Virus record (IMG/VR): IMGVR_UViG_3300049988_000286 | Span: 192,001-256,000 of that record | DNA length: 64,000 nucleotides | Direction: 5' to 3' (one strand) | Source of the DNA: a virus | Lineage: Duplodnaviria > Caudoviricetes | Shown here: positions 25,198-61,981 of the stretch, in pieces | Layout of the letters: each line of letters opens with the position of its first letter | How positions within the stretch are numbered: the stretch's first letter is position 1 | The notes under the pieces: model-generated | Told to the model about the DNA's origin: nothing | What the model saw: the letters and a program-made list of their open reading frames with translations, nothing else | Databases searched by the model: none | Translations under genes and position numbers: made by a program

Positions 25198-26697
25198 ATG
25201 ACCCTCCGTGAACACCTCGATCTCATCATCGCTGAACACGGACTGAAACAATGGTCGAGGGTCGCACAGAAGGATGAAGCCTTCATGGCGCTTATCCCCG
25301 TCGTAGAAGGATTGTCCTTCCCCGAACGTGTCTTGGTTGCGTTGGGCGAACCCGCTTGGTGCGAGAGGGGCCAGAGGCGCAAATTCGGTTCGATCGTCAC
25401 GGGTTGGCGGTTCTGCGGCAAAACCGGCGTGTGCCCCTGCGCGGCCGAGACGGTCTCCCGGAAGTGCAAAACCAATATCGACCACGAGGCTCGATTAGCC
25501 AAAACGTCGGCGACGCTCAAGGCGCGCTACGGCTCCACCAATCCCGGCCAAGCCCCCGCTGCCAAGGCGGCGCACCGTGCCCTCTACGAAGATGAAGAGC
25601 GGGTAGCGGCAGCGGTTGCCAAAGGAAGGGCAACGATGCTTGAACGGCACGGCGTTGACAATGCGTTCAAACTCCCGATCGATCGGAAGGCTATTGCGCG
25701 CCGCGAATGGTCGATTGAGACGGGTGCCCTCCTCGATGATCCCGCTCTATTCGCCGACTATATGGCGAGCCGTTCTTCCATGGGCGCGGCCGATGACCTC
25801 GGGATCAATCCCACGACGATCAACAACTATGTTCGTCGCCATGGCCTCGATCTTCGAGGATCATCTTATGAACGCGAAATCGCGTCGTTTCTCGCCGATA
25901 ACGGATTGAATTTCAAGCCGCGTGATCGAACTGTGATCAGACCGCTGGAACTTGACTTCTTGTTAACCCAGCACGATCTGGCGATTGAGTTTAATGGCCT
26001 TTACTACCATTCTGAACTCGTTCTCGACAATGATGCTCATCAGCGCAAGTGGCAGATGTGTCACGATGCTGGTATTCGCCTGTTGATGATCAACGAGGAC
26101 GAATGGAACGAGCGCAAGGAAGTGCTCAAGAGGAAAATCCTGATTCTGTGTGGCCTTGGTGAGCGCGGCGTAGGTGGCCGTCAGCTATCTGTTCGAGATA
26201 TCGGGGCTCCTGTCGCAAGAGCATTCTGTGAGCAGCACCATATCCAAGGTGCGCCCGGTCCAGTCACGCTCGCATTGGGCGCTTTTGAAGGCGATGATCT
26301 TCGAGGTGTCGTCACGATGGGTAGCCAACGCGGCACGGGCGCAACAGAACTCACTCGTTTCTGCACTGACGGAAGGTTGTACGCGGGCATGTTTGGCAAG
26401 CTTCTGAAAGCCGCACAACATCGCTTTGACGAAATCGTGACTTTCGCCGATCTCCGCTACAGCGACGGCGGTGTTTACGACAAGACCGGATTCATCAACT
26501 GTGGCACAATTCGGCCCGACTATCGCTATGTGATACGCAACAAGAGCTTCCATAAGAGTCTCTTCACCAAAAAGCGGATTGCCGAGCGCTTCAACATTGA
26601 CATGACCGGACTTACCGAGCGTGATGCTATGCGCAGTCTCGGGATACCCCGCATCTACGATTGCGGAAAAATCAAGTATCGCTGGCTCAAAGATTGA
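25198..26697 (+). CDS. free-standing Hef-like homing endonuclease (DUF559/Vsr-type domain plus C-terminal domain)
   Basis: EREIASFL...LELDFLL...LAIEFNGLYYHS, IRLLMINEDEW, HHIQG, ELTRFC, FADLRYSDG.VY..TGF and RIYDCGKIKY. Confidence 0.75.
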   Translation: MTLREHLDLIIAEHGLKQWSRVAQKDEAFMALIPVVEGLSFPERVLVALGEPAWCERGQRRKFGSIVTGWRFCGKTGVCPCAAETVSRKCKTNIDHEARLAKTSATLKARYGSTNPGQAPAAKAAHRALYEDEERVAAAVAKGRATMLERHGVDNAFKLPIDRKAIARREWSIETGALLDDPALFADYMASRSSMGAADDLGINPTTINNYVRRHGLDLRGSSYEREIASFLADNGLNFKPRDRTVIRPLELDFLLTQHDLAIEFNGLYYHSELVLDNDAHQRKWQMCHDAGIRLLMINEDEWNERKEVLKRKILILCGLGERGVGGRQLSVRDIGAPVARAFCEQHHIQGAPGPVTLALGAFEGDDLRGVVTMGSQRGTGATELTRFCTDGRLYAGMFGKLLKAAQHRFDEIVTFADLRYSDGGVYDKTGFINCGTIRPDYRYVIRNKSFHKSLFTKKRIAERFNIDMTGLTERDAMRSLGIPRIYDCGKIKYRWLKD

Positions 26698-26760
26698 TAT
26701 TGCCATCCTCGACTGCGGTCTGTAGAACGACGGAAACAAATCGTATAAGTGAGAAAGCGT

Positions 26761-27045
26761 ATGTCGAAGTCAGCCAACGAAATCGTTCAGGAAGCCCTTT
26801 TCTCGTCGCTGATCGAGGCAGTCACTGCGCTCAAGGCCGGTGGTACACCGAACACGATCCTGCGAGACCTGTCGGCCATTCACGCCAACACTTCGATGGA
26901 CTCGCTGCCCGATGGTGTGCAGAAGGCTCTTCAGGCGGGTGTCCGCGACACGATGGCGCGTCTTCAGAAGGAAGGTTACGTCATCGCTCCGAAAGTGCTA
27001 CCCGCGAAGCGCGAAACCTTCGCGCCGCGACATCCACGACGCTGA
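26761..27045 (+). CDS. hypothetical protein
   Basis: 94-aa helical ORF with phage-like codon usage, followed by a terminator. Confidence 0.65.
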   Translation: MSKSANEIVQEALFSSLIEAVTALKAGGTPNTILRDLSAIHANTSMDSLPDGVQKALQAGVRDTMARLQKEGYVIAPKVLPAKRETFAPRHPRR

Positions 27046-28020: not shown

Positions 28021-28560
28021 TTACCTTGGCGCAGTCCAGTGATGATTGCATCGAGGCTCGTAAGTGTCGCTACCCCCGAGTTCAACCACTTCACCGCTAC
28101 GCGATTTCTTGTAGGTCTTGCTCGCCGGGGCGGCACAAACGCTGCACGTTGCTTTCAACTTGATGACTTCATCGGCCATCCCCGTGAGCGCCGCAGAGAT
28201 CGGGAAGGGATCACCATGCCAATCGGTGTCGAGGCCGCAGACAAGCACTTCCTTCCCGGCCTTGAGGAACACCTTGATGGCGCGCACGATGTCGCCGCCG
28301 TAATGGGGCTGGGCGAAGAACTGAACTTCATCGATGCAGATGAGACCAGCCGCATCGGCGGAGAGCATATCGTCGGGGAGCGCCACGGGAGAGGCATTGA
28401 CGCGATCCCCAGTATGGGTGACGCATTCCTCCTCTGCGTAACGGATGTCCATGGCGGGCTTGAACACGATCGAGTCATCTCGCGCCCGCACTGTCTTGAC
28501 AAGGTGACTGGTCTTCCCGCTGTACATGGGACCGGTGACCATGGTTAGGCGTCCGTACAT
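28021..28560 (-). CDS. tdk: thymidine kinase
   Basis: GPMYSGKT, IDEVQFF, GLDTDW, CSVC and YEPRC. Confidence 0.93.
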   Translation of the reverse strand: MYGRLTMVTGPMYSGKTSHLVKTVRARDDSIVFKPAMDIRYAEEECVTHTGDRVNASPVALPDDMLSADAAGLICIDEVQFFAQPHYGGDIVRAIKVFLKAGKEVLVCGLDTDWHGDPFPISAALTGMADEVIKLKATCSVCAAPASKTYKKSRSGEVVELGGSDTYEPRCNHHWTAPR

Positions 28561-29120
28561 AGACGCTCCACGATCTCCGACCAGTCATTCACCCGCGTCA
28601 TCCCTGCATCGGGGAGGTCAGCGTTGTAGGCATGATTGATCAGGTAGGTGTCAAAGCCGAGTTCATGACCCGCTAATGCGTTGTCGTAGTTGTCCTCGAT
28701 CCATACGGATGGTTCAAGGCTGGATAGCACCGCACGCTTCGAAACAAATCCAGTAGCGATGACTTCCTCAAAGGGAACGCCCAGCACGGCTTCGAGATTA
28801 TTTCGACGCCTCTGCGCGATACCAGCGGTGTTGGGACATGCCGTGATCGCAACAAAGCGCCAACCACAAACATGGAGGCTACGCATTGCCTCTGCTGCTC
28901 CCTTCATGGCAGGGACGCTATAGGCGTGCTCACACGCGAAATAGCGGTGCACCACATCGCTCTCTTCTTCGTCGCTGATTCCGAAAGCGAGCGTGAGACG
29001 GTTGAACCGGTGAAGGTGATCATCGGGAAAGTCGTAGCCTTGTTCCCGCAGCCACGGCTCCCAATGCAGATTGAAGTCGAGAACGGTAGCATCGACATCG
29101 GTATAGATGATCTTACTCAC
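28545..29120 (-). CDS. HAD-family 5'(3')-deoxyribonucleotidase-like protein (T4 30.2-like)
   Basis: IYTDVDATVLDF, WIEDNYDNA and HAYN...RVNDWSEI; GTG start assumed. Confidence 0.75.
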   Translation of the reverse strand: MSKIIYTDVDATVLDFNLHWEPWLREQGYDFPDDHLHRFNRLTLAFGISDEEESDVVHRYFACEHAYSVPAMKGAAEAMRSLHVCGWRFVAITACPNTAGIAQRRRNNLEAVLGVPFEEVIATGFVSKRAVLSSLEPSVWIEDNYDNALAGHELGFDTYLINHAYNADLPDAGMTRVNDWSEIVERLCTDA

Positions 29121-40674: not shown

Positions 40675-41721
40675 TCAAAAGGAGATAAATTCGTCGCCGC
40701 TATGAACGAAGCTACCAGACAAATCCCACTTCATCGGTCCTACCAGATTATCCAGCTTCTTATCGATGATGACTTCCTCCATGGCGGCATGATCGAACGG
40801 CAAATCCTTGAACCACTTCGGCAGATGCGGCTCATCTATGGGGTAAGCGATAGAATCCATCTTCGACACCGTGGGGAGAAGCTTGCAGACGATGATGCGC
40901 GACCCATCGGTGATCCTCATCGAGAACTTGTCGTTGTGGATGTCGAGCATCTTGTTCCAATTCTCCGACGCACGGACGTGGCCCGGCACCGTCGATTTGG
41001 CCTTCTCACCCTTTCGCCGAGCATCAGTAAGCCCCATCGAGGCCGATCGAGCCATGATGCGACGATACTTGGTCAAGTTGCTGACCTTCTTCGGACTGCC
41101 CTTCTCCCACGCGGGTCTAGCCTTGAAGGCAGTCCTGAACTCGCGAATGTCACCGATGATCTGATCCTGACTGGTGCCTTGCAGGACATCCATGAGGACT
41201 TGCTCAAGGAAGGCTTGCATGAACTTCGGCGTATCAGCACGCTTGAGGTCGAGCCCCATCGCTTTCAACTTACCGGGCTTGTTGCCAGTGTCGAGGCGCT
41301 TGCCTTCAAGATCGTAGATCAACCCGCCGTATTTCTTCTTCTTGATGAAGAGCATCCGGGAGGCCACCAACTCACGACCAGCCGCGATGATCGCACCACG
41401 CTTCAACGATGTGTTGAAAGTGCGCGCCATGAATTCGGGGAAGGTCGCGTTGACGTTATCCGCCACCTTGTCATAGATGGCAATGTAATCCTCACGCGTG
41501 CAATCCTCACCCATCATATAGGCGGCAGAGAAGTAGCACGAATCGGTATCCGCGTAGCAGATCGCATCACCGGTATAGTCGTACTCACCAGTGAGTTCCT
41601 GATTCACCTGCGCATTCATATGCCGAACAATGGAACGACCCGTGAGGGTCACTGATTGTCCCATACGAGGGTCGGCCAGCCTCATTGCCTCGTTAAGGAG
41701 CGCCCCGTACAGCGAGTTAAG
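40675..41721 (-). CDS. family B DNA polymerase, C-terminal gene, exon 2
   Basis: LNSLYGAL, GQSVTLTG, YADTDS (motif C), KKKYG and GLDLKRADTP. Confidence 0.92.
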   Translation of the reverse strand, partial: LNSLYGALLNEAMRLADPRMGQSVTLTGRSIVRHMNAQVNQELTGEYDYTGDAICYADTDSCYFSAAYMMGEDCTREDYIAIYDKVADNVNATFPEFMARTFNTSLKRGAIIAAGRELVASRMLFIKKKKYGGLIYDLEGKRLDTGNKPGKLKAMGLDLKRADTPKFMQAFLEQVLMDVLQGTSQDQIIGDIREFRTAFKARPAWEKGSPKKVSNLTKYRRIMARSASMGLTDARRKGEKAKSTVPGHVRASENWNKMLDIHNDKFSMRITDGSRIIVCKLLPTVSKMDSIAYPIDEPHLPKWFKDLPFDHAAMEEVIIDKKLDNLVGPMKWDLSGSFVHSGDEFISF

Positions 41722-41971
41722 CCATGATGTTCCAAGCCGATCGCCACCGACTTGTTGTCCTTGTGGACAACTGCATGTTGCCATGCAGAGCAGACCATAT
41801 CATAGACTCTTCGTGAGAGCCCCCGCCCGTTTCGGCCCGCTTGGGCCTACTCGCTTTCGCGATGGTCGTTGAACCTTCCCTTGCGGGCTTGGCTGCTGAT
41901 TGTCCCAGAGGGATGTCCCAGCAATTAGAGCGGTTATTCGATGGCCGTCGCCGACCAAAGCCTCCAGATTA
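41722..41971 (-). ncRNA. group I self-splicing intron (250 nt, no ORF)
   Basis: 5' exon ends in U and the intron ends in G. P AAUUGCUGGGA, Q AAUCAGCAGCC, R GGUUCAACGACCAU, S UGAUAUGGUC; P7 GACCAU/AUGGUC; P3 CCGCUC/GGGCGG; GNRA-capped P2 and P9. Removing it restores ARKIL-LNSLYG in frame. Confidence 0.9.
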
Positions 41972-42154
41972 AAGGATTTTTCTCGCTTGCTGTCGTTGGT
42001 CCCAGAACCCGATCTGCCCTGCTACCCATTCACGCTTCTCTTCGATCGCTACGATCTTGCCGTCTTGCAGTTCCAGCCCATGCTCCGACATCAACTCGGC
42101 AATGGCGCTGGCATCTCCTGCTTCGATCAACTGACCAAGCTTCTCAATTTCCAT
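41972..42154 (-). CDS. family B DNA polymerase, C-terminal gene, exon 1 (61 aa)
   Basis: GGAGA SD and ATG; ends FWDQRQQARKIL, the first half of motif B, followed by an intron-encoded TAA. Confidence 0.85.
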
Positions 42155-42273
42155 ACGGTGTCTCTCCACTCATCAGAGACAATCTACTTAACTTCGGCTC
42201 GTTCCCACAATATGATTCGCTATTGTCTTGACAGTTCCCTCAACTCTGCTACACCTGTTGAGAAGGAACCTCT

Positions 42274-42813
42274 ATGCCCATTATCCTCATTGGCTGTTTC
42301 ATCGGTGCCGTGCTCGGTGTGGGCGCGATGAGTCTATGGACGGGTATGAAGGCGCACCCCAAGGCGGTGGCGATCATCTGGGCCATTTCCTCGTTCATCG
42401 CCCTCATCTGGCACCCTGTCCCCAAGGGCCGGGATTTCCACGCCGTGGGGATCATCGGTCAGTCCGAGGCAACCGTGGTGGCGGCGATCGGTGAGGCGCA
42501 GACCTGTTCACCGTTCTTCGACGAGATCGACCCCGACAGTGGGAAGACCGCGTGCTACTATCAGGGCAACACGACGGTCATCTACCAGCATGGTCGCTCG
42601 ATCCGGATCACGAGTGGTGCTCTCGATGGCGTCCCCTACGCGACCTCACCGGAGTATTACGCCGTGGTTACCGAGCATCTTGGTTTCGATGCCAGCCGCC
42701 CCGTGGTGGCCACCATCGACAAATTGGTTTGGCAGATCGACGGCGGCACGCTAACCGTGTTGTCGAACCAGCGTCTCGACACTGCGGGGATCACCATTGA
42801 CGCCACATCTTGA
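42274..42813 (+). CDS. predicted membrane protein (inside the pol split)
   Basis: Two N-terminal hydrophobic segments; AAGGA SD. Confidence 0.65.
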   Translation: MPIILIGCFIGAVLGVGAMSLWTGMKAHPKAVAIIWAISSFIALIWHPVPKGRDFHAVGIIGQSEATVVAAIGEAQTCSPFFDEIDPDSGKTACYYQGNTTVIYQHGRSIRITSGALDGVPYATSPEYYAVVTEHLGFDASRPVVATIDKLVWQIDGGTLTVLSNQRLDTAGITIDATS

Positions 42814-43255
42814 TCAACTGGTTGATCTTCCGTCGTGGGATCATGGGCTGAAGATTGACCGGCAGATCGATGATGTGCGCCGGGAAGTCCAGAGTGCGAT
42901 CGGTGGTTTGGAGCCCGGTCGCGAGGCCGATGACGTGGATCAGGCCTTCGACAATTACATCGCCACGGTCGATAAGCTCCGTGACCTCTACGCAACGGCA
43001 GAGGGCATTTTCCACACTGTGCGGGAGGCCTACGATGAGGCGATCACGATCGCGGATCGGTTGTTCGAACTCCAACCATGGCGGATGACGATCTCCGATA
43101 CCTCACCTCATTATAAGGCCTTGCGCGGAGCACCGCCGATGTGGCTTGAGGAAAACCTTCACGACGCCGTGGAGATATTCCCGCTCGCTGGTCACCTCAT
43201 AATTGTTTTCGGCAACGAGGCCGACATGACGCTCTTTCGCCTCAAGTATGCCTGA
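42797..43255 (+). CDS. hypothetical protein (small paralog family domain at the C-terminus)
   Basis: MWLEENL...IVFGNEADMTLFRLKY. Confidence 0.65.
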   Translation: MTPHLDQLVDLPSWDHGLKIDRQIDDVRREVQSAIGGLEPGREADDVDQAFDNYIATVDKLRDLYATAEGIFHTVREAYDEAITIADRLFELQPWRMTISDTSPHYKALRGAPPMWLEENLHDAVEIFPLAGHLIIVFGNEADMTLFRLKYA

Positions 43256-43817
43256 ACGTGAAGCCCGAGGCGGTGGTTCCCATCGTCTGGGGGCGTGACA
43301 TTTCGATATCGCTCGCTTGGGGGATGGGCTGCGACATTCCAATATATTCGCTCCGCAGCGCGACTTCCTTGACGATCACGAAGGGTGCCGGGGTGGCGTT
43401 TCCGAGCGGCGTCGATCCCAGCCACACATCGTTGGTTTGTCGGAACAGGAGATCGCCGTGCCGAATGGGTGTGGTGAGGCGGCTGATACCCATGTGAGAG
43501 ACGAGAGTGCGATCCTCTCCCGTGTAGCGCAGAATGGCTCCGGTCTGTGGAGGGGCGACGGTGATCTCCCCCATGGCGTCGGAGAACTGCCCGGCTGCTT
43601 CGAGGGCACGACGTTGATCCGCGAGACGGCAATAGGCCAGTAGCGCATTGCGGTACCACGGCAGGGGCACAGCGGCGGTTTCAATGTCACTGGGGCCGAT
43701 GATGCCAAGATCGATCTGGGTCATCATGGCGGAGATTTCTGGGCGGCGCTGCGCTTCACTGCGAAGCAACGCCACGGGGTCGCGCCCGTTCATACCGACG
43801 ATCTGATTAGGTTGCAT
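43242..43817 (-). CDS. hypothetical protein
   Basis: GGGAGA SD; about 191 aa. Confidence 0.6.
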   Translation of the reverse strand: MQPNQIVGMNGRDPVALLRSEAQRRPEISAMMTQIDLGIIGPSDIETAAVPLPWYRNALLAYCRLADQRRALEAAGQFSDAMGEITVAPPQTGAILRYTGEDRTLVSHMGISRLTTPIRHGDLLFRQTNDVWLGSTPLGNATPAPFVIVKEVALRSEYIGMSQPIPQASDIEMSRPQTMGTTASGFTFRHT

Positions 43818-43828
43818 GGTTCTCCCAT

Positions 43829-43865
43829 AAACAATTAGGACCGCACCCGAAGGCACGGCCCTAAT
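43829..43865 (-). terminator. cUUCGg-capped hairpin/terminator
   Basis: ATTAGGGCCGTGCC-TTCG-GGTGCGGTCCTAAT-TGTTT with three G.U pairs. Confidence 0.7.
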
Positions 43866-43893
43866 ATGGAGGTTCGGAGTCTAGCGTGCAATA

Positions 43894-44343
43894 TTACACT
43901 GCCATTAGGAGTGCCGCCACATCGTTCTGCCGCTGCATCTCGACCTCTAGCTTCTGCTCGACCATCTCGTTGTATTGGTCGCGAGTGCCGGAAGTCATGA
44001 AGTTGTAGTTGTCGAGGACTTCTGGCATGTCGGGGTATAGGTTGGTGCCGATCCACACTCCGCCGCCAACGGCGTAGAGTAGGTCTCCATCACGGACCTC
44101 TAGGCCGAGATGGTTGTCATCGGCGGGGATCATGACGGTCGGGCCATCGTATTCCAAGATACCACCAATCTCGTCGATCGCCCTGTCCTCCATCGTATCC
44201 GGGAGTAGGTGATCGAGAACGCTCATCGTGACGCGGTTGCGGGCACTCGCGAGGGTGCGCACCAGCGATTTGAAGGCGGTGGGGGTGTCGCCACCGATCG
44301 TGGTGGTCGGGGTATCGAGGTCTGCGGTTGCCTGTGCAAACAT
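43894..44343 (-). CDS. hypothetical protein
   Basis: AGGAGA SD; about 149 aa. Confidence 0.65.
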   Translation of the reverse strand: MFAQATADLDTPTTTIGGDTPTAFKSLVRTLASARNRVTMSVLDHLLPDTMEDRAIDEIGGILEYDGPTVMIPADDNHLGLEVRDGDLLYAVGGGVWIGTNLYPDMPEVLDNYNFMTSGTRDQYNEMVEQKLEVEMQRQNDVAALLMAV

Positions 44344-44735
44344 GGTAGTATCTCCTATACTGGCAAGCCCGCGTTGTGGGGCTTTCTGAATTAGTATAGG
44401 TATAACTACCGGGAGCGAACTATAGTTCCCTAATTGCAACTTTTATTTGATTATTTTAGAACATGGAACGAGGAAGTGGACCAATGAACAAGCAGCAAAG
44501 AACAATTCGGCCTAGCACATATAGTGAAAATGGCTCACAATTGACAAGCTACAATAATCTCATAACACCGCAGCAACCGACAATTGTCCGAAGACTGGTA
44601 TGCGGTGATCAAGAGAATGCCCTATTCGGGCTTTGCTGAAAGTGTCTACCACACGCCGGGGCGTGATCGAGAAACATGATCCTACCTACACTCGCTCCAT
44701 GCCCCCCGCAGGGACCGAAGCCCCTGCGAAGCCCG

Positions 44736-45344
44736 TTAGTCGATCAGCTTCTCGGCGCGGAGAACCGCAACCTCCTCATCCGCGAGGGTGATCGTCGTGT
44801 TGAAATTCGTGGCGGTCAGGTCGTCCTTCAAGGACGCGCGCTGGCGCTTGAGCACCGCGATGAGGTCGGCGATGAACCCCTTGGTCTCCGCTCCCATGAT
44901 GTCGATGGTGAGCGACTCGGTGCGGACCGTGTATCGCTCACGGCTTTCCGGCGCGTCCAGATCGGCGCGCATCTTCGCGACCTTGCGATCAAGGGCGGCG
45001 AGATCATCGATCGGCGTGGCGTCGTCGAACAGATTCTCCGGCTTCGCGACCGCAGTAAGGCGCAGAAGCTGCTCATCGATCGCGGCGACGAGCGCCAGAT
45101 TGCCATCGACGCCCGCCGCGCTGTTGGCGATGCCCACCATGGCGCGGATGCGGTAAGCAGCGGTGATCGCCCCCTGCTGGCGCTCCAGCGCGGCGAAGAA
45201 GGCGACGCGGGTCGCATCCGCCGCCTCGGTAGCAGTGATCTCGCTGTAGGCGGAGATCGAAGCGCGGGGGTTGGGCGTAATGGTCTTCGCCACCGCGAGC
45301 AAGGCACGCGACAACTCCGACGCCTTCTTGAGAGTGATCTTCAT
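44736..45344 (-). CDS. hypothetical coiled-coil protein
   Basis: 202 aa MKITLKKA...; upstream sigma70-like promoter. Confidence 0.7.
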   Translation of the reverse strand: MKITLKKASELSRALLAVAKTITPNPRASISAYSEITATEAADATRVAFFAALERQQGAITAAYRIRAMVGIANSAAGVDGNLALVAAIDEQLLRLTAVAKPENLFDDATPIDDLAALDRKVAKMRADLDAPESRERYTVRTESLTIDIMGAETKGFIADLIAVLKRQRASLKDDLTATNFNTTITLADEEVAVLRAEKLID

Positions 45345-45377
45345 GGTCCGGTCCCCGTTCGAATATCGTTTCGCCGT

Positions 45378-45408
45378 CCATCTAGACGGCGGGCAGAAGG
45401 ACTGTCAA
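45378..45408 (-). promoter_or_regulatory. alphaproteobacterial-type sigma70 promoter TTGACA-N17-CTAGAT inside an inverted repeat
   Basis: Minus strand reads ctagatggcggg TTGACA gtccttctg cccgccgtCTAGAT. Confidence 0.55.
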
Positions 45409-45427
45409 CCCGCCATCTAGAAAATAA

Positions 45428-47158
45428 TCACGCCTTATTCTGCGCCGCCGTAATCGCTAGTGCGAGGTCGGCATCGACCTCAATCCCGTCCTTGAGTTTT
45501 GCATAGAAGCCCTTCTTCTTCTGCATGGTTTGGCGGTCCGAGTACCACTTCGCCAAAAGCTGCGGGATGATCCCCTCCTGATCGGTTCGGAAGATCGTCC
45601 CGTTAGCAGAGATGCACAAATTGCTCCCCGGTCGGAAAATGAAGTCGTATAATTGGCGTCCCGACATCACCTTGGTGGTCCCGTCATCGAAATCGATCGT
45701 GATCGGTGCACCATCCTTGGCCATCATGTGATCAACCTCCAAGGCCGCGAAGATGCCATCCCACGCTTCTGCGCGAGGCACCTTGTTGGCGATCCGTTGG
45801 TCAACGAGCGCCTTTGTCTCGTCGAGGCGAATCTGGCCCACGATCGTCTCCGGAGAGAGGTTGAGGGCGCGGATAGTCGAGGGATACAGGGAGTTGATGT
45901 CCACGGCGGCGACGTGATCGTGCAAGCCCATCTTGGGCTTGGCCACATAGGCACCCACCACCGGCTTTTTCTTGTTATCAAAGCCGCCCTCCTCGTCGTC
46001 CTCATCCTCGTCGTCCACCTCCTCCTCGATCACCTCCTCGACCCGTGGTTTACGATTGGGGGCAACGAGACCCATCTCGTGCATTTCAAGGATGATGGCC
46101 TGTTCTACCAGCGCCACCGATCCCATCGTCGTCTTTAGCTGCACGCAGTTGACGTGGGCGATCTGATTGGCGAGTTCGATGAAGCGCTTCTTCTTGTCGA
46201 TCTTGACCAGCAGGGCAACGTCCTGTCGGGAGTATTCAACGAACTTGTAGAAGTCCTTCTTGTACAGGTCGTCGAGGGTGCCCTCATAGGGGATTTTGTT
46301 GTCCCCGACTTCGACTTCACCGATATAGTCGAGGCGATAGCTGTGTTGCTGCTGGGGGTTGTGCTTCTGATAGAGTTCCAGATAGTCGAGGTGGACGCGC
46401 CCCATCAGGTCATAGGACTCGTGGTCCTTACCGAATTTGGGAACCATGCGCTGGCGCGGCTTCTGTCGCCATAGACATAGGTCTCGCGTAGCATCCTCGT
46501 CGATAATCCGTTTGATGCGGTTTACGATGTAGGGGATATCGAACAGCGTCGAGTTCCAGCCCGAGAGCACATCCACGTCCTCGATGATCTGCATAAAGGC
46601 GCGCAGAAGTTCCCGCTCGTCATCGAACAGGAAGGTGTCGGGGAACTGATCGCAGATCGCCTGTGCCTCCTCGGTGGTAAGCGTCGGAGGCTTGAGCGCG
46701 AGGCAGATCAATCGATCAACATGCGAGAGGTCGATCGAGATGGCGGTCACAGCATTGAACGGGTCATCGACGGGCGCGTAGCCGCGCTCCGCATGATAAC
46801 CGGTTTCGATATCGAAGAAGCCCACGTTGAGGACGGGCGCGTTGACCCCCTTGTAGTGCTTCTCCAGTGCGCGGAAGACGGGATTGATATCCGACTCGAA
46901 GACTTTGTGCCGGGGTTTACCGTTACGATCGAGATCGTTGGTGAACCGTCCCAATTCCTTGCGGAATTTCTGACCGTCGTTGGTTTTGAAAATCTTGCAC
47001 GCATCGCCGTACATGGATCGATGAGAGCCCGCCGGATGCGAGTAGTAAAAGACATGCTCGCAATCATGTTCGACGAGGTGGCGGACGCCATTCACGTCAC
47101 GCTCGGCAACTTGAATGACGTTCCGCTTGGCGTTGTATAGGGCATCGATGTAAGACAT
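45428..47158 (-). CDS. family B DNA polymerase, N-terminal gene (exonuclease plus palm motif A)
   Basis: ExoI FFDIET, ExoII GWNS..FDIPY, ExoIII Y...DV, motif A DINSLYPS and GIIPQLLAKWYSDR; stops in the fingers region. Confidence 0.93.
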   Translation of the reverse strand: MSYIDALYNAKRNVIQVAERDVNGVRHLVEHDCEHVFYYSHPAGSHRSMYGDACKIFKTNDGQKFRKELGRFTNDLDRNGKPRHKVFESDINPVFRALEKHYKGVNAPVLNVGFFDIETGYHAERGYAPVDDPFNAVTAISIDLSHVDRLICLALKPPTLTTEEAQAICDQFPDTFLFDDERELLRAFMQIIEDVDVLSGWNSTLFDIPYIVNRIKRIIDEDATRDLCLWRQKPRQRMVPKFGKDHESYDLMGRVHLDYLELYQKHNPQQQHSYRLDYIGEVEVGDNKIPYEGTLDDLYKKDFYKFVEYSRQDVALLVKIDKKKRFIELANQIAHVNCVQLKTTMGSVALVEQAIILEMHEMGLVAPNRKPRVEEVIEEEVDDEDEDDEEGGFDNKKKPVVGAYVAKPKMGLHDHVAAVDINSLYPSTIRALNLSPETIVGQIRLDETKALVDQRIANKVPRAEAWDGIFAALEVDHMMAKDGAPITIDFDDGTTKVMSGRQLYDFIFRPGSNLCISANGTIFRTDQEGIIPQLLAKWYSDRQTMQKKKGFYAKLKDGIEVDADLALAITAAQNKA

Positions 47159-61411: not shown

Positions 61412-61981
61412 TTAGCGCTTGCGGGGCCGCTTGACTACTTTGGCAGCGGTGATGTGAACACTCGATCCCCGCAAAATCACTTCCTGCTGCTGCTCGTAGC
61501 GCTCAAACTGGTACAGGATGTCGTCAAAGTATCGCGGATCGATTTCTGCGGGTTTGGTCTTTAGCCACGAGAGAACGTCTGACACGCAGAGCACGATCGC
61601 GCGGCGGTTCTTCTGCACGTCTGCGGAAAACACCACTCCGTAGCGCCCACCATAGTCTTTCGCAAACTCCTCGGCGACGGTGAAGTTGGGTGACCACGAC
61701 TGCATCTTCTTCAACGCGGTCTTGACCTTGCCGGATTGAAAATCCTGCACATCATCGAACCCCACCCCTCGGTAGAGGGTGCCGGTCAGAGTGTCGCGCG
61801 CCGCGCCGGGAACGCGCGCGGCGATTGCCTTCATCGCATCATAGTATGGCTTTGGTGAGAAACGCTCACCCTCGTCATTGATCAACGACATGGCATCGCC
61901 ATTGAGCCAGTCACCTACCGTCCACAGGGTGGAAGTGAGATCGTCGTCATGATCTTCGAGTAGGTTGATCCAGTTGCGCAT
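61412..61981 (-). CDS. ADP-ribosyltransferase-like protein (R-S-E type)
   Basis: LYRG, SWS and QQEVIL motifs in canonical order; TAAATA-GGGG-ATG; N-terminus MRNWINLLE. Confidence 0.65.
   Translation of the reverse strand: MRNWINLLEDHDDDLTSTLWTVGDWLNGDAMSLINDEGERFSPKPYYDAMKAIAARVPGAARDTLTGTLYRGVGFDDVQDFQSGKVKTALKKMQSWSPNFTVAEEFAKDYGGRYGVVFSADVQKNRRAIVLCVSDVLSWLKTKPAEIDPRYFDDILYQFERYEQQQEVILRGSSVHITAAKVVKRPRKR

Follow-up and report, generated by a model that had tools for sequence, protein, structure and literature searches.

The RefSeq record of Aeromonas phage 25 (NC_008208) lists, side by side, gene 43A, a homing endonuclease gene and a gene 43B annotated as "split by group IA2 intron". According to the reviews PMC2988022 and PMC2993671, this ORF-less IA2 intron self-splices (Petrov, Ratnayaka & Karam 2010, J Mol Biol 395:457) and the free-standing endonuclease of the phage is predicted to mobilise it; PMC2993671 attributes to Petrov 2010 the finding that the endonuclease cleaves the intron-less 43B site. 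The two polymerase halves of Aeromonas phages 25 and 44RR co-purify and are active (PMC2988022), and gene 43 of phage JSE carries another intron (PMC2993671). Jug phages, a group of huge gut phages, have an average of 18.5 group I introns per genome, short (~206 nt) and ORF-less. These introns lie in essential genes, the genomes encode stand-alone homing endonucleases and fragmented DNA polymerase genes, and metatranscriptome reads confirm splicing for about half of the introns tested (PMC12880540). The introns of family A polymerase genes (SPO1/Bastille, T7-like) usually encode a nicking HNH endonuclease, and the Pf-WMP3 intron is of subgroup IA2 (PMC3984707, PMC3428280).

We analysed a 64,000-nt stretch of DNA, referred to here as the window, from a 499,572-bp phage genome whose source is a leaf metagenome. 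In this genome, the C-terminal cistron of the family B DNA polymerase (polB-C) is interrupted by a 250-nt ORF-less group I intron at 41722-41971 on the minus strand (Table 1). The window and phage 25 have much in common: an ORF-less IA2 intron in motif B of the C-terminal cistron, a T4/RB69-type polB split at the fingers tip, and foreign DNA between the A and B cistrons, with a Gram-negative host in the case of phage 25. However, the phage 25 intron is 347 nt long rather than 250 nt, the two are ~52% identical, and phage 25 carries its insert 22 nt further downstream, within the Leu codon that follows YGA rather than between KIL and LNS. Its exon 1 reads through NRKILINSLYGAL, and the U.G rule places its 5' splice site after GUGCGU. 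In phage 25 the spacer contains just one gene, for a seg-like homing endonuclease known from experiment to cleave the intron-less site, whereas the 3.27-kb spacer of the window holds five ORFs and no recognisable endonuclease. Splicing was demonstrated experimentally in phage 25 and is predicted for the window.

Like the window phage, the Jug phages are huge and combine short ORF-less group I introns with fragmented polymerase genes, but they form another clade with Bacteroides/Phocaeicola hosts and have ~18 introns per genome, against one here. The SPO1/Bastille and T7-like introns are also group I introns in conserved parts of replicative polymerase genes; they differ in residing in family A enzymes and in usually encoding an HNH endonuclease, which the window intron lacks. 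An earlier note, written from the window sequence alone, had considered an intron in a T4-type polB unusual. This was overstated, given that phage 25 gene 43B (2010), JSE gene 43 and the huge gut phages came before. Its premise that polymerase introns occur mostly in family A enzymes is incomplete in view of these cases. The window intron adds one more case to an arrangement known from other phages.

A group I intron within motif B

The first exon of polB-C is a frame of 61 codons that starts at ATG 42154 (minus strand), with GGAGAG upstream, and ends CGA CAA CAA GCG AGA AAA AUC CUU. The next triplet, UAA at 41971-41969, is both an in-frame stop and the start of the intron. Since the insert begins with this in-frame UAA, we rejected an intein. 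The frame resumes as LNSLYGALLN at C41721, leaving a gap (41971-41722) of exactly 250 nt. These coordinates agree exactly with the 61-aa frame, TAA and 250-nt interval described in the earlier note, and the splice sites that it had named by the U...G rule are found at U41972 and G41722.

A search with the Rfam group I intron model RF00028 (gathering score, 50 bits), which the earlier note had proposed, returned a match at 41981-41771 (minus strand) over the full model (1-253) with 69 bits and an E-value of 2.1e-15. This was the sole Rfam match at gathering level within the window and the only RF00028 match in the whole genome; between 40000 and 48000, no other Rfam match was meaningful at E-values up to 5. 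What places the insert among group I introns is the combination of an RF00028 score above threshold, a U.G pair in P1, a terminal G with restoration of the frame, and covarying helices. The only ORF inside the intron (52 aa) has a coding score of -0.29, compared with +0.13 to +0.38 for the neighbouring genes, and by the ORF list and this score the 250 nt contain no homing endonuclease ORF. We found no near-identical DNA among 50,697 phage records, and the 61-aa peptide of exon 1, used as a query for other intron-bearing alleles, recovered only itself.

Joining U41972 to C41721 yields AUC CUU/CUU AAC, which is translated as RQQARKIL/LNSLYGALLN and restores KILLNSLYG. We translated the N-terminal ORF and both exons and aligned them with the polymerases of Sinorhizobium phage Phosso and Agrobacterium phage Atu_ph07. 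The junction showed no gap against RQLARKILLNSLYGALLN and RQQAVKILLNSLYGALLN of these cultured relatives (Phosso, Atu_ph07), and the restored RQQARKILLNSLYGALLN likewise aligned gap-free with the four intron-less sequences of Phosso, Atu_ph07 and the metagenomic loci L028 and L008. A DNA-level alignment with L028 and L008 was equally colinear across the junction. The intact KxxxNSxYG motif B that the earlier note expected from joining CUU to CUU was thus recovered by comparison with intron-less homologs, as was its predicted reading AUC CUU CUU AAC. G41737 precedes the only other in-frame acceptor; we rejected it as the 3' splice site, as its use would add five residues (LGTSW) and break KxxxNS. 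The first residue of exon 2 aligns with I563 of RB69 gp43, so the intron lies between the codons matching RB69 L562 and I563, three codons past the catalytic-site K560.

We assigned the helices from the RF00028 alignment, an unconstrained fold and inspection by hand. The unconstrained fold had a minimum free energy of -101 kcal/mol (z = -3.3). The P1 pairing of CCUU with GAGG and its U.G, the GNRA hairpins and the P3 and P7 pairings noticed in the first reading of the sequence were all located. Covariation was evaluated on the window intron and five of the phage relatives obtained by blastn (see below), with slid controls in which the 3' partners were moved by 1-3 columns. Across these six homologous introns, 89.7% of cells in the P2-P9.2 structure were paired, compared with 37-46% in the slid controls; 45 of 70 pairs had changed on both sides, and none of 500 shuffles attained the observed values. 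P3, P4, P6, P7, P7.1 and P7.2 were paired in 100% of cells, P5 in 95.8%, P9 in 95% and P8 in 94.7%, and P9.1 and P9.2 aligned less well. Changes on both sides affected eight of the nine pairs of P7.1 and P7.2, and P7 of the window has a private compensatory double change from U-A to C-G. P10 is weak (~3 bp) and the loop of P1 very short, which we counted as a reservation about the efficiency of splicing. The extra P7.1/P7.2 hairpins between P7 and P3', shared with the phage 25 intron (IA2 in RefSeq; RF00028, 64 bits, P7.1/P7.2 insert present), indicate subgroup IA2, an assignment by hairpin layout and likeness to phage 25 under the general RF00028 model.

Table 1. Coordinates and remarks for the features of the polB locus, with insertion sites, guides and linked genes of related introns. 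Coordinates refer to the window unless a locus is given; a slash in a motif marks the insertion point.
Feature	Position	Strand	Remarks
polB N-terminal cistron, gp43A-like, 576 aa	45428-47158	-	Exonuclease domain, motif A, first finger helix
Cassette, 3.27 kb, five ORFs	42155-45427	both	Separates the polB cistrons
Cassette ORF, 202 aa	44736-45344	-	Widespread viral family of helical proteins
Cassette ORF	43894-44439	-	
Cassette ORF	43242-43856	-	
Cassette ORF	42797-43255	+	
Cassette ORF	42274-42813	+	
polB C-terminal cistron, exon 1, 61 aa	41972-42154	-	ATG 42154, GGAGAG upstream; ends RQQARKIL
ORF-less group I intron, IA2 architecture	41722-41971	-	250 nt; starts UAA, last base G41722
Internal guide sequence GAGG	41961-41964	-	P1 with exon CCUU (41975-41972); U41972.G at cleavage site (Rfam alignment)
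P2			GCGA loop
Catalytic core P3, P4-P6, P7, P8, J8/7	41793-41933	-	Helix assignment and covariation
P3	41933-41928 / 41828-41823	-	CCGCUC / GGGCGG
P4, P5, P6, P8			Found; P6a with GCAA loop
P7	41867-41863 / 41797-41793	-	GACCA / UGGUC
P7.1 and P7.2 hairpins, between P7 and P3'	41834-41862	-	Mark of subgroup IA
P7.1	41862-41851	-	Covaries; GAAA loop
P7.2	41847-41834	-	Covaries
P9 (GCAA loop), P9.1, P9.2	41733-41788	-	Peripheral hairpins, then 11-nt tail to G41722
polB C-terminal cistron, exon 2, 348 aa + stop	40675-41721	-	LNSLYG of motif B, motif C YADTDS, thumb
Insertion site, -9 nt relative to window	R/KILLNS		L022, L029, L033
Insertion site, 0	KIL/LNS		Window, L031
Insertion site, +11 nt	Inside Leu codon of NSL		L030, L032
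Insertion site, +22 nt	Leu codon after YGA		Aeromonas phage 25
Exon / guide CCGU / GCGG			L029, L033
Exon / guide UCGU / GCGA			L022
Exon / guide CCUU / GAGG			Window; L031 has the same GAGG guide, its contig holding the last two exon bases (UU) only
Exon / guide GCCU / GGGC			L030
Exon / guide GCUU / GAGC			L032
Exon / guide GUGCGU / GCGCAC			Aeromonas phage 25
Putative free-standing homing endonuclease	L022:6498-7505	-	NUMOD3; weak MTES_1575 match
Putative free-standing homing endonuclease	L030:5700-6425	-	NUMOD3 and DUF559
Putative free-standing homing endonuclease	L032:5702-6505	-	NUMOD3 and DUF559

A split polymerase with a gene cassette between its cistrons

The intron resides in a polymerase gene that is itself split at the fingers tip: the N-terminal cistron has its own stop at 45428 and the C-terminal cistron its own ATG at 42154. 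The N-terminal cistron matches Pfam DNA_pol_B_exo1 (9e-19) and positions 10-136 of the DNA_pol_B profile, and exon 2 matches positions 162-342 of the latter. Identity to the Phosso and Atu_ph07 polB is 48-50% for the N-terminal cistron and 51-53% for exon 2, which is 81% identical to L028 and 75% to L029. The N-terminal cistron aligns with RB69 gp43 up to about residue 487, and its stop lies ~25 residues beyond. An acidic low-complexity Asp/Glu run after EEVIEEE in this cistron (45988-46028) attracts unrelated contigs and inflates apparent depth.

The spliced C-terminal product would have 409 aa, and its uninterrupted relatives have 407-412 aa. Among the best-scoring 120 clusters of exon 2 homologs, most are separate proteins of ~401-454 aa, commonly 406-421 aa. 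Atu_ph07 has two adjacent polymerase CDS that are split at the same linker as in the window phage, and the Phosso polymerase is a single 1012-aa protein. Judging from the shared linker in Atu_ph07 and the free-standing homologs, the A/B split is ancestral in the clade. L028, the closest metagenomic relative, has an uninterrupted 408-aa C-terminal gene beside the same cassette, and hence the interruption is no gene boundary but an intron that entered the gene after the split.

All five ORFs of the cassette have positive codon-usage (coding) scores. None of them matched a Pfam or PHROG family even at an E-value of 5, none carried a nuclease or NUMOD signature, and none was similar to the polB-linked endonucleases of L022, L030 and L032. 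In an atlas look-up, the 204-aa ORF matched nothing and the 202-aa ORF fell into a viral family without a name. Homologs occupy the same place in L029 (four ORFs) and L028 (three), with 26-47% amino acid identity. We also considered a second intron at the A/B split and rejected it: apart from the motif B intron, no Rfam match was obtained between 40000 and 48000 at E-values up to 5, and the presence of genes on both strands makes the spacer a gene cassette. A 14-bp terminator-like hairpin lies between two cassette ORFs (43834-43865, minus strand); it is the sole terminator-like site in 40.5-47.4 kb, a count no higher than in shuffles.

The nearest cultured relatives, Phosso and Atu_ph07, share ~50% protein identity with the window phage, and as they infect Sinorhizobium and Agrobacterium, a Gram-negative host is plausible at that distance. 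Strains 95-99% identical to the window, including the cassette, are present in other metagenomes (contigs from four DNA runs). In a phyllosphere metagenome that contains a strain with 97-98% identity, a contig of 358 nt terminates precisely at 41721, leaving the intron uncovered. A contig from another run carries the intron at ~99% identity, and a third run shows a 9-nt gap at 41976, shortly before the 5' splice site, with divergence below 41865 (the start of P7/P7.1). No intron-less allele emerged from the four runs. These data are assembled contigs, which cannot prove absence and from which alleles are not reconstructable.

Related introns, insertion sites and linked endonucleases

We collected contigs encoding exon 2 relatives from IMG/VR and other public sources, and set intron boundaries by the U.G rule, the terminal G and restoration of the motif. 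Six more metagenomic jumbo-phage polB-C genes proved to be interrupted in motif B by RF00028 introns (72-90 bits). Together with the window, these seven introns range from 245 to 269 nt and share 60-76% identity with one another and about 50% with the phage 25 intron. The six share with the window intron the intron family, the gene, the motif and the helices. One of them, L031, has the same insertion point, whereas the other five are displaced by -9 or +11 nt and have guides altered to fit (Table 1). In each related polB intron the guide complements its own 5' exon with a U.G at the cut (in L031 at the two bases that could be checked), and removing each intron restores the same motif B. This match between guide and insertion site is independent support, at the level of sequence, for working introns. 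In L033 the two polB cistrons are adjacent, without a cassette.

Related introns extend beyond polB. A blastn search with the window intron gave 561 phage records that match its core at 68-77% identity, the best of them in or beside terminase and other genes. The introns of Acinetobacter phage YMC13/03/R2096, Xanthomonas phage DES1, and the Pseudomonas phages KIL1 and T2P (phiKZ-like) are ORF-less, of IA2 type and 68-77% identical in the core, and share their secondary structure with the window intron through compensatory changes, but they reside in other host genes (the terminase large subunit and others) and have other guides. Separately, motif C is interrupted between YADTD and S in L025 (6356-8000) and in proteins P0082, P0089, P0093, P0096, P0118 and P0073. 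These inserts end ILVHN before SCYF, one has a Pfam Intein_splicing match, and they look like inteins; the 1.65-kb insert of L025 has no group I intron match and encodes a Vsr-like nuclease segment.

Three of the six related polB introns adjoin a NUMOD3/Vsr-like endonuclease gene, unlike the window intron. In L022, L030 and L032 this gene lies directly upstream of exon 1, on the opposite strand, and encodes a protein with a Zn-finger-like N-terminus, NUMOD3 repeats and a nuclease domain of the DUF559/Vsr/MTES_1575 type. NUMOD3 scored 20.4-31.7 bits (cut-off 20.4), DUF559 scored 21.6-21.8 bits in L030 and L032 (cut-off 20.6), and the three proteins are 31-49% identical to one another. A tblastn search found no member of the family in the other ~21 polB loci, including all ~19 that are intron-less. 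Beside the window polB there is no free-standing homing endonuclease, and the adjacency that marks collaborative homing, as seen in phage 25 and for cyanophage psbA, is absent there. Elsewhere in the genome, Vsr-like ORFs at genome positions 323199-324215 and window positions 25198-26697 are 23-27% identical to the polB-linked proteins and 16-90 kb away.

The product of the ORF at window positions 25198-26697 (plus strand, 499 aa) has a Vsr-like segment that shares 25% identity with the L032 endonuclease; its C-terminus carries a Mom-family domain (Pfam PF25680, 28.8 bits). Outside the window, GIY-YIG plus NUMOD3, HNH_3 and Vsr-like ORFs occur at genome positions 28380-28880, 26717-26794, 61818-61889, 165532-165774 and 323199-324215. 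Scattered free-standing ORFs resembling homing endonucleases are thus present in a genome that has one group I intron.

The codons for Lys-Ile of motif B (window 41972-41980) are AAA-ATC in all six fully resolved intron-bearing jumbo-phage alleles and AAG-ATT in seven of the nine scorable intron-less loci, two of which are identical, in counts that ignore shared ancestry. This association could reflect co-conversion, endonuclease immunity or shared ancestry. With no endonuclease in or beside it, the window intron would be fixed, unless an endonuclease acting in trans, encoded at another place in the genome or by a co-infecting relative, allows it to move.

Splicing, rival readings and meaning

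This analysis establishes a ribozyme-type sequence and structure, a junction that is exactly colinear, and the layout of the split gene. On these grounds we consider it very likely that 41722-41971 (minus strand) is an ORF-less IA2 intron in a split T4/RB69-type polB-C and is removed by ordinary group I splicing. A search for RNA runs that contain this DNA returned none, and we infer splicing from sequence and structure as follows. The polB-C cistron would be transcribed from upstream of ATG 42154, the intron would fold, and its guide GAGG would pair with exon CCUU. An external guanosine would then attack after U41972, at the U.G wobble pair, and the freed exon end would attack after the terminal G41722. 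The ligated mRNA, reading AUC CUU CUU AAC, would encode the 409-aa protein with motifs B and C and the thumb; on unspliced RNA, translation would halt at the UAA that opens the intron. By analogy with Aeromonas phages 25/44RR, the 409-aa product would join the 576-aa N-terminal product non-covalently, and we infer that the two halves assemble in this way across the 3.27-kb cassette.

An ATG-initiated ORF at 41784-40675 offers a different reading, in which the intron has decayed and no longer splices, so that the 61-aa peptide and a 369-aa protein from ATG 41784 are parts of a three-piece enzyme, or the gene is dead. We regard this as improbable. The full-length model match contains all core elements, with compensatory changes; motif B would be divided, its catalytic lysine on one chain and NSLYG on another; ATG 41784 lies within the P9 stem, with no GGAG-type ribosome-binding sequence seen before it; and polB encodes the replicative polymerase, with well-conserved exons. 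That the RF00028 match arose by chance or was misassigned, and that just a structured spacer of 250 nt separates two genes, is scarcely credible in the face of an E-value of 2e-15 over the full-length model with covariation, a motif B restored exactly in frame, and seven independent homologous cases in the same motif.

Ordinary splicing being the preferred reading, a further question is whether the intron is actively mobile by collaborative (trans) homing, in which a free-standing endonuclease would cut intron-less motif B, repair would copy the intron in, and the intron would also shield polB. The NUMOD3 and DUF559/Vsr-like genes upstream of exon 1 in L022, L030 and L032, found at none of the ~19 intron-less loci, suggest such a mobility or immunity role. 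So do the distant Vsr-like ORFs of the genome, the predominance of AAA-ATC in intron-bearing and AAG-ATT in intron-less alleles, the contig of the 97-98% identical strain that stops at the 3' splice site, and the cleavage of the intron-less 43B site in phage 25 (Petrov 2010, as cited in PMC2993671). However, the window intron has no endonuclease gene in or beside it, the Vsr-like ORFs of the genome share little identity with the polB-linked ones and are far from the intron, the codon counts take no account of common descent, and little weight attaches to the end of a contig. We therefore hold active trans homing to be possible and somewhat doubtful. A broader proposal, which we offer tentatively, is that the 32-nt stretch coding for RKILLNSLYGAL in family B polymerases of phages is a common landing pad for one IA2 lineage that was re-targeted at least four times (-9, 0, +11 and +22 nt) through guide changes, and that in huge phages travels with a hitherto uncharacterised family of free-standing NUMOD3/Zn-finger/Vsr-like endonucleases by collaborative homing; the window intron might then be an orphan that mainly immunises polB against the endonucleases of co-infecting relatives.

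For annotation, the replicative polymerase of this phage is now represented by fragments of 576, 61 and 314 aa, and the correct set would be 576 aa plus the spliced 409 aa. The earlier note had anticipated that ORF callers would miss the intron, and the public protein collection indeed has the gene as separate 61-aa and 314-aa products. The combination of a divided polB, foreign DNA between its parts and an ORF-less intron in motif B gains a third, independent lineage with the window phage, the first two being T4-like Aeromonas phage 25 and the huge gut phages. New here is the candidate multi-site landing pad in motif B with its linked endonuclease family, which extends a known category and does not open a new one. 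The staggered insertion points and linked endonuclease genes form a natural series that bears on how ORF-less introns move and on whether such introns shield essential genes from homing endonucleases when phages co-infect.
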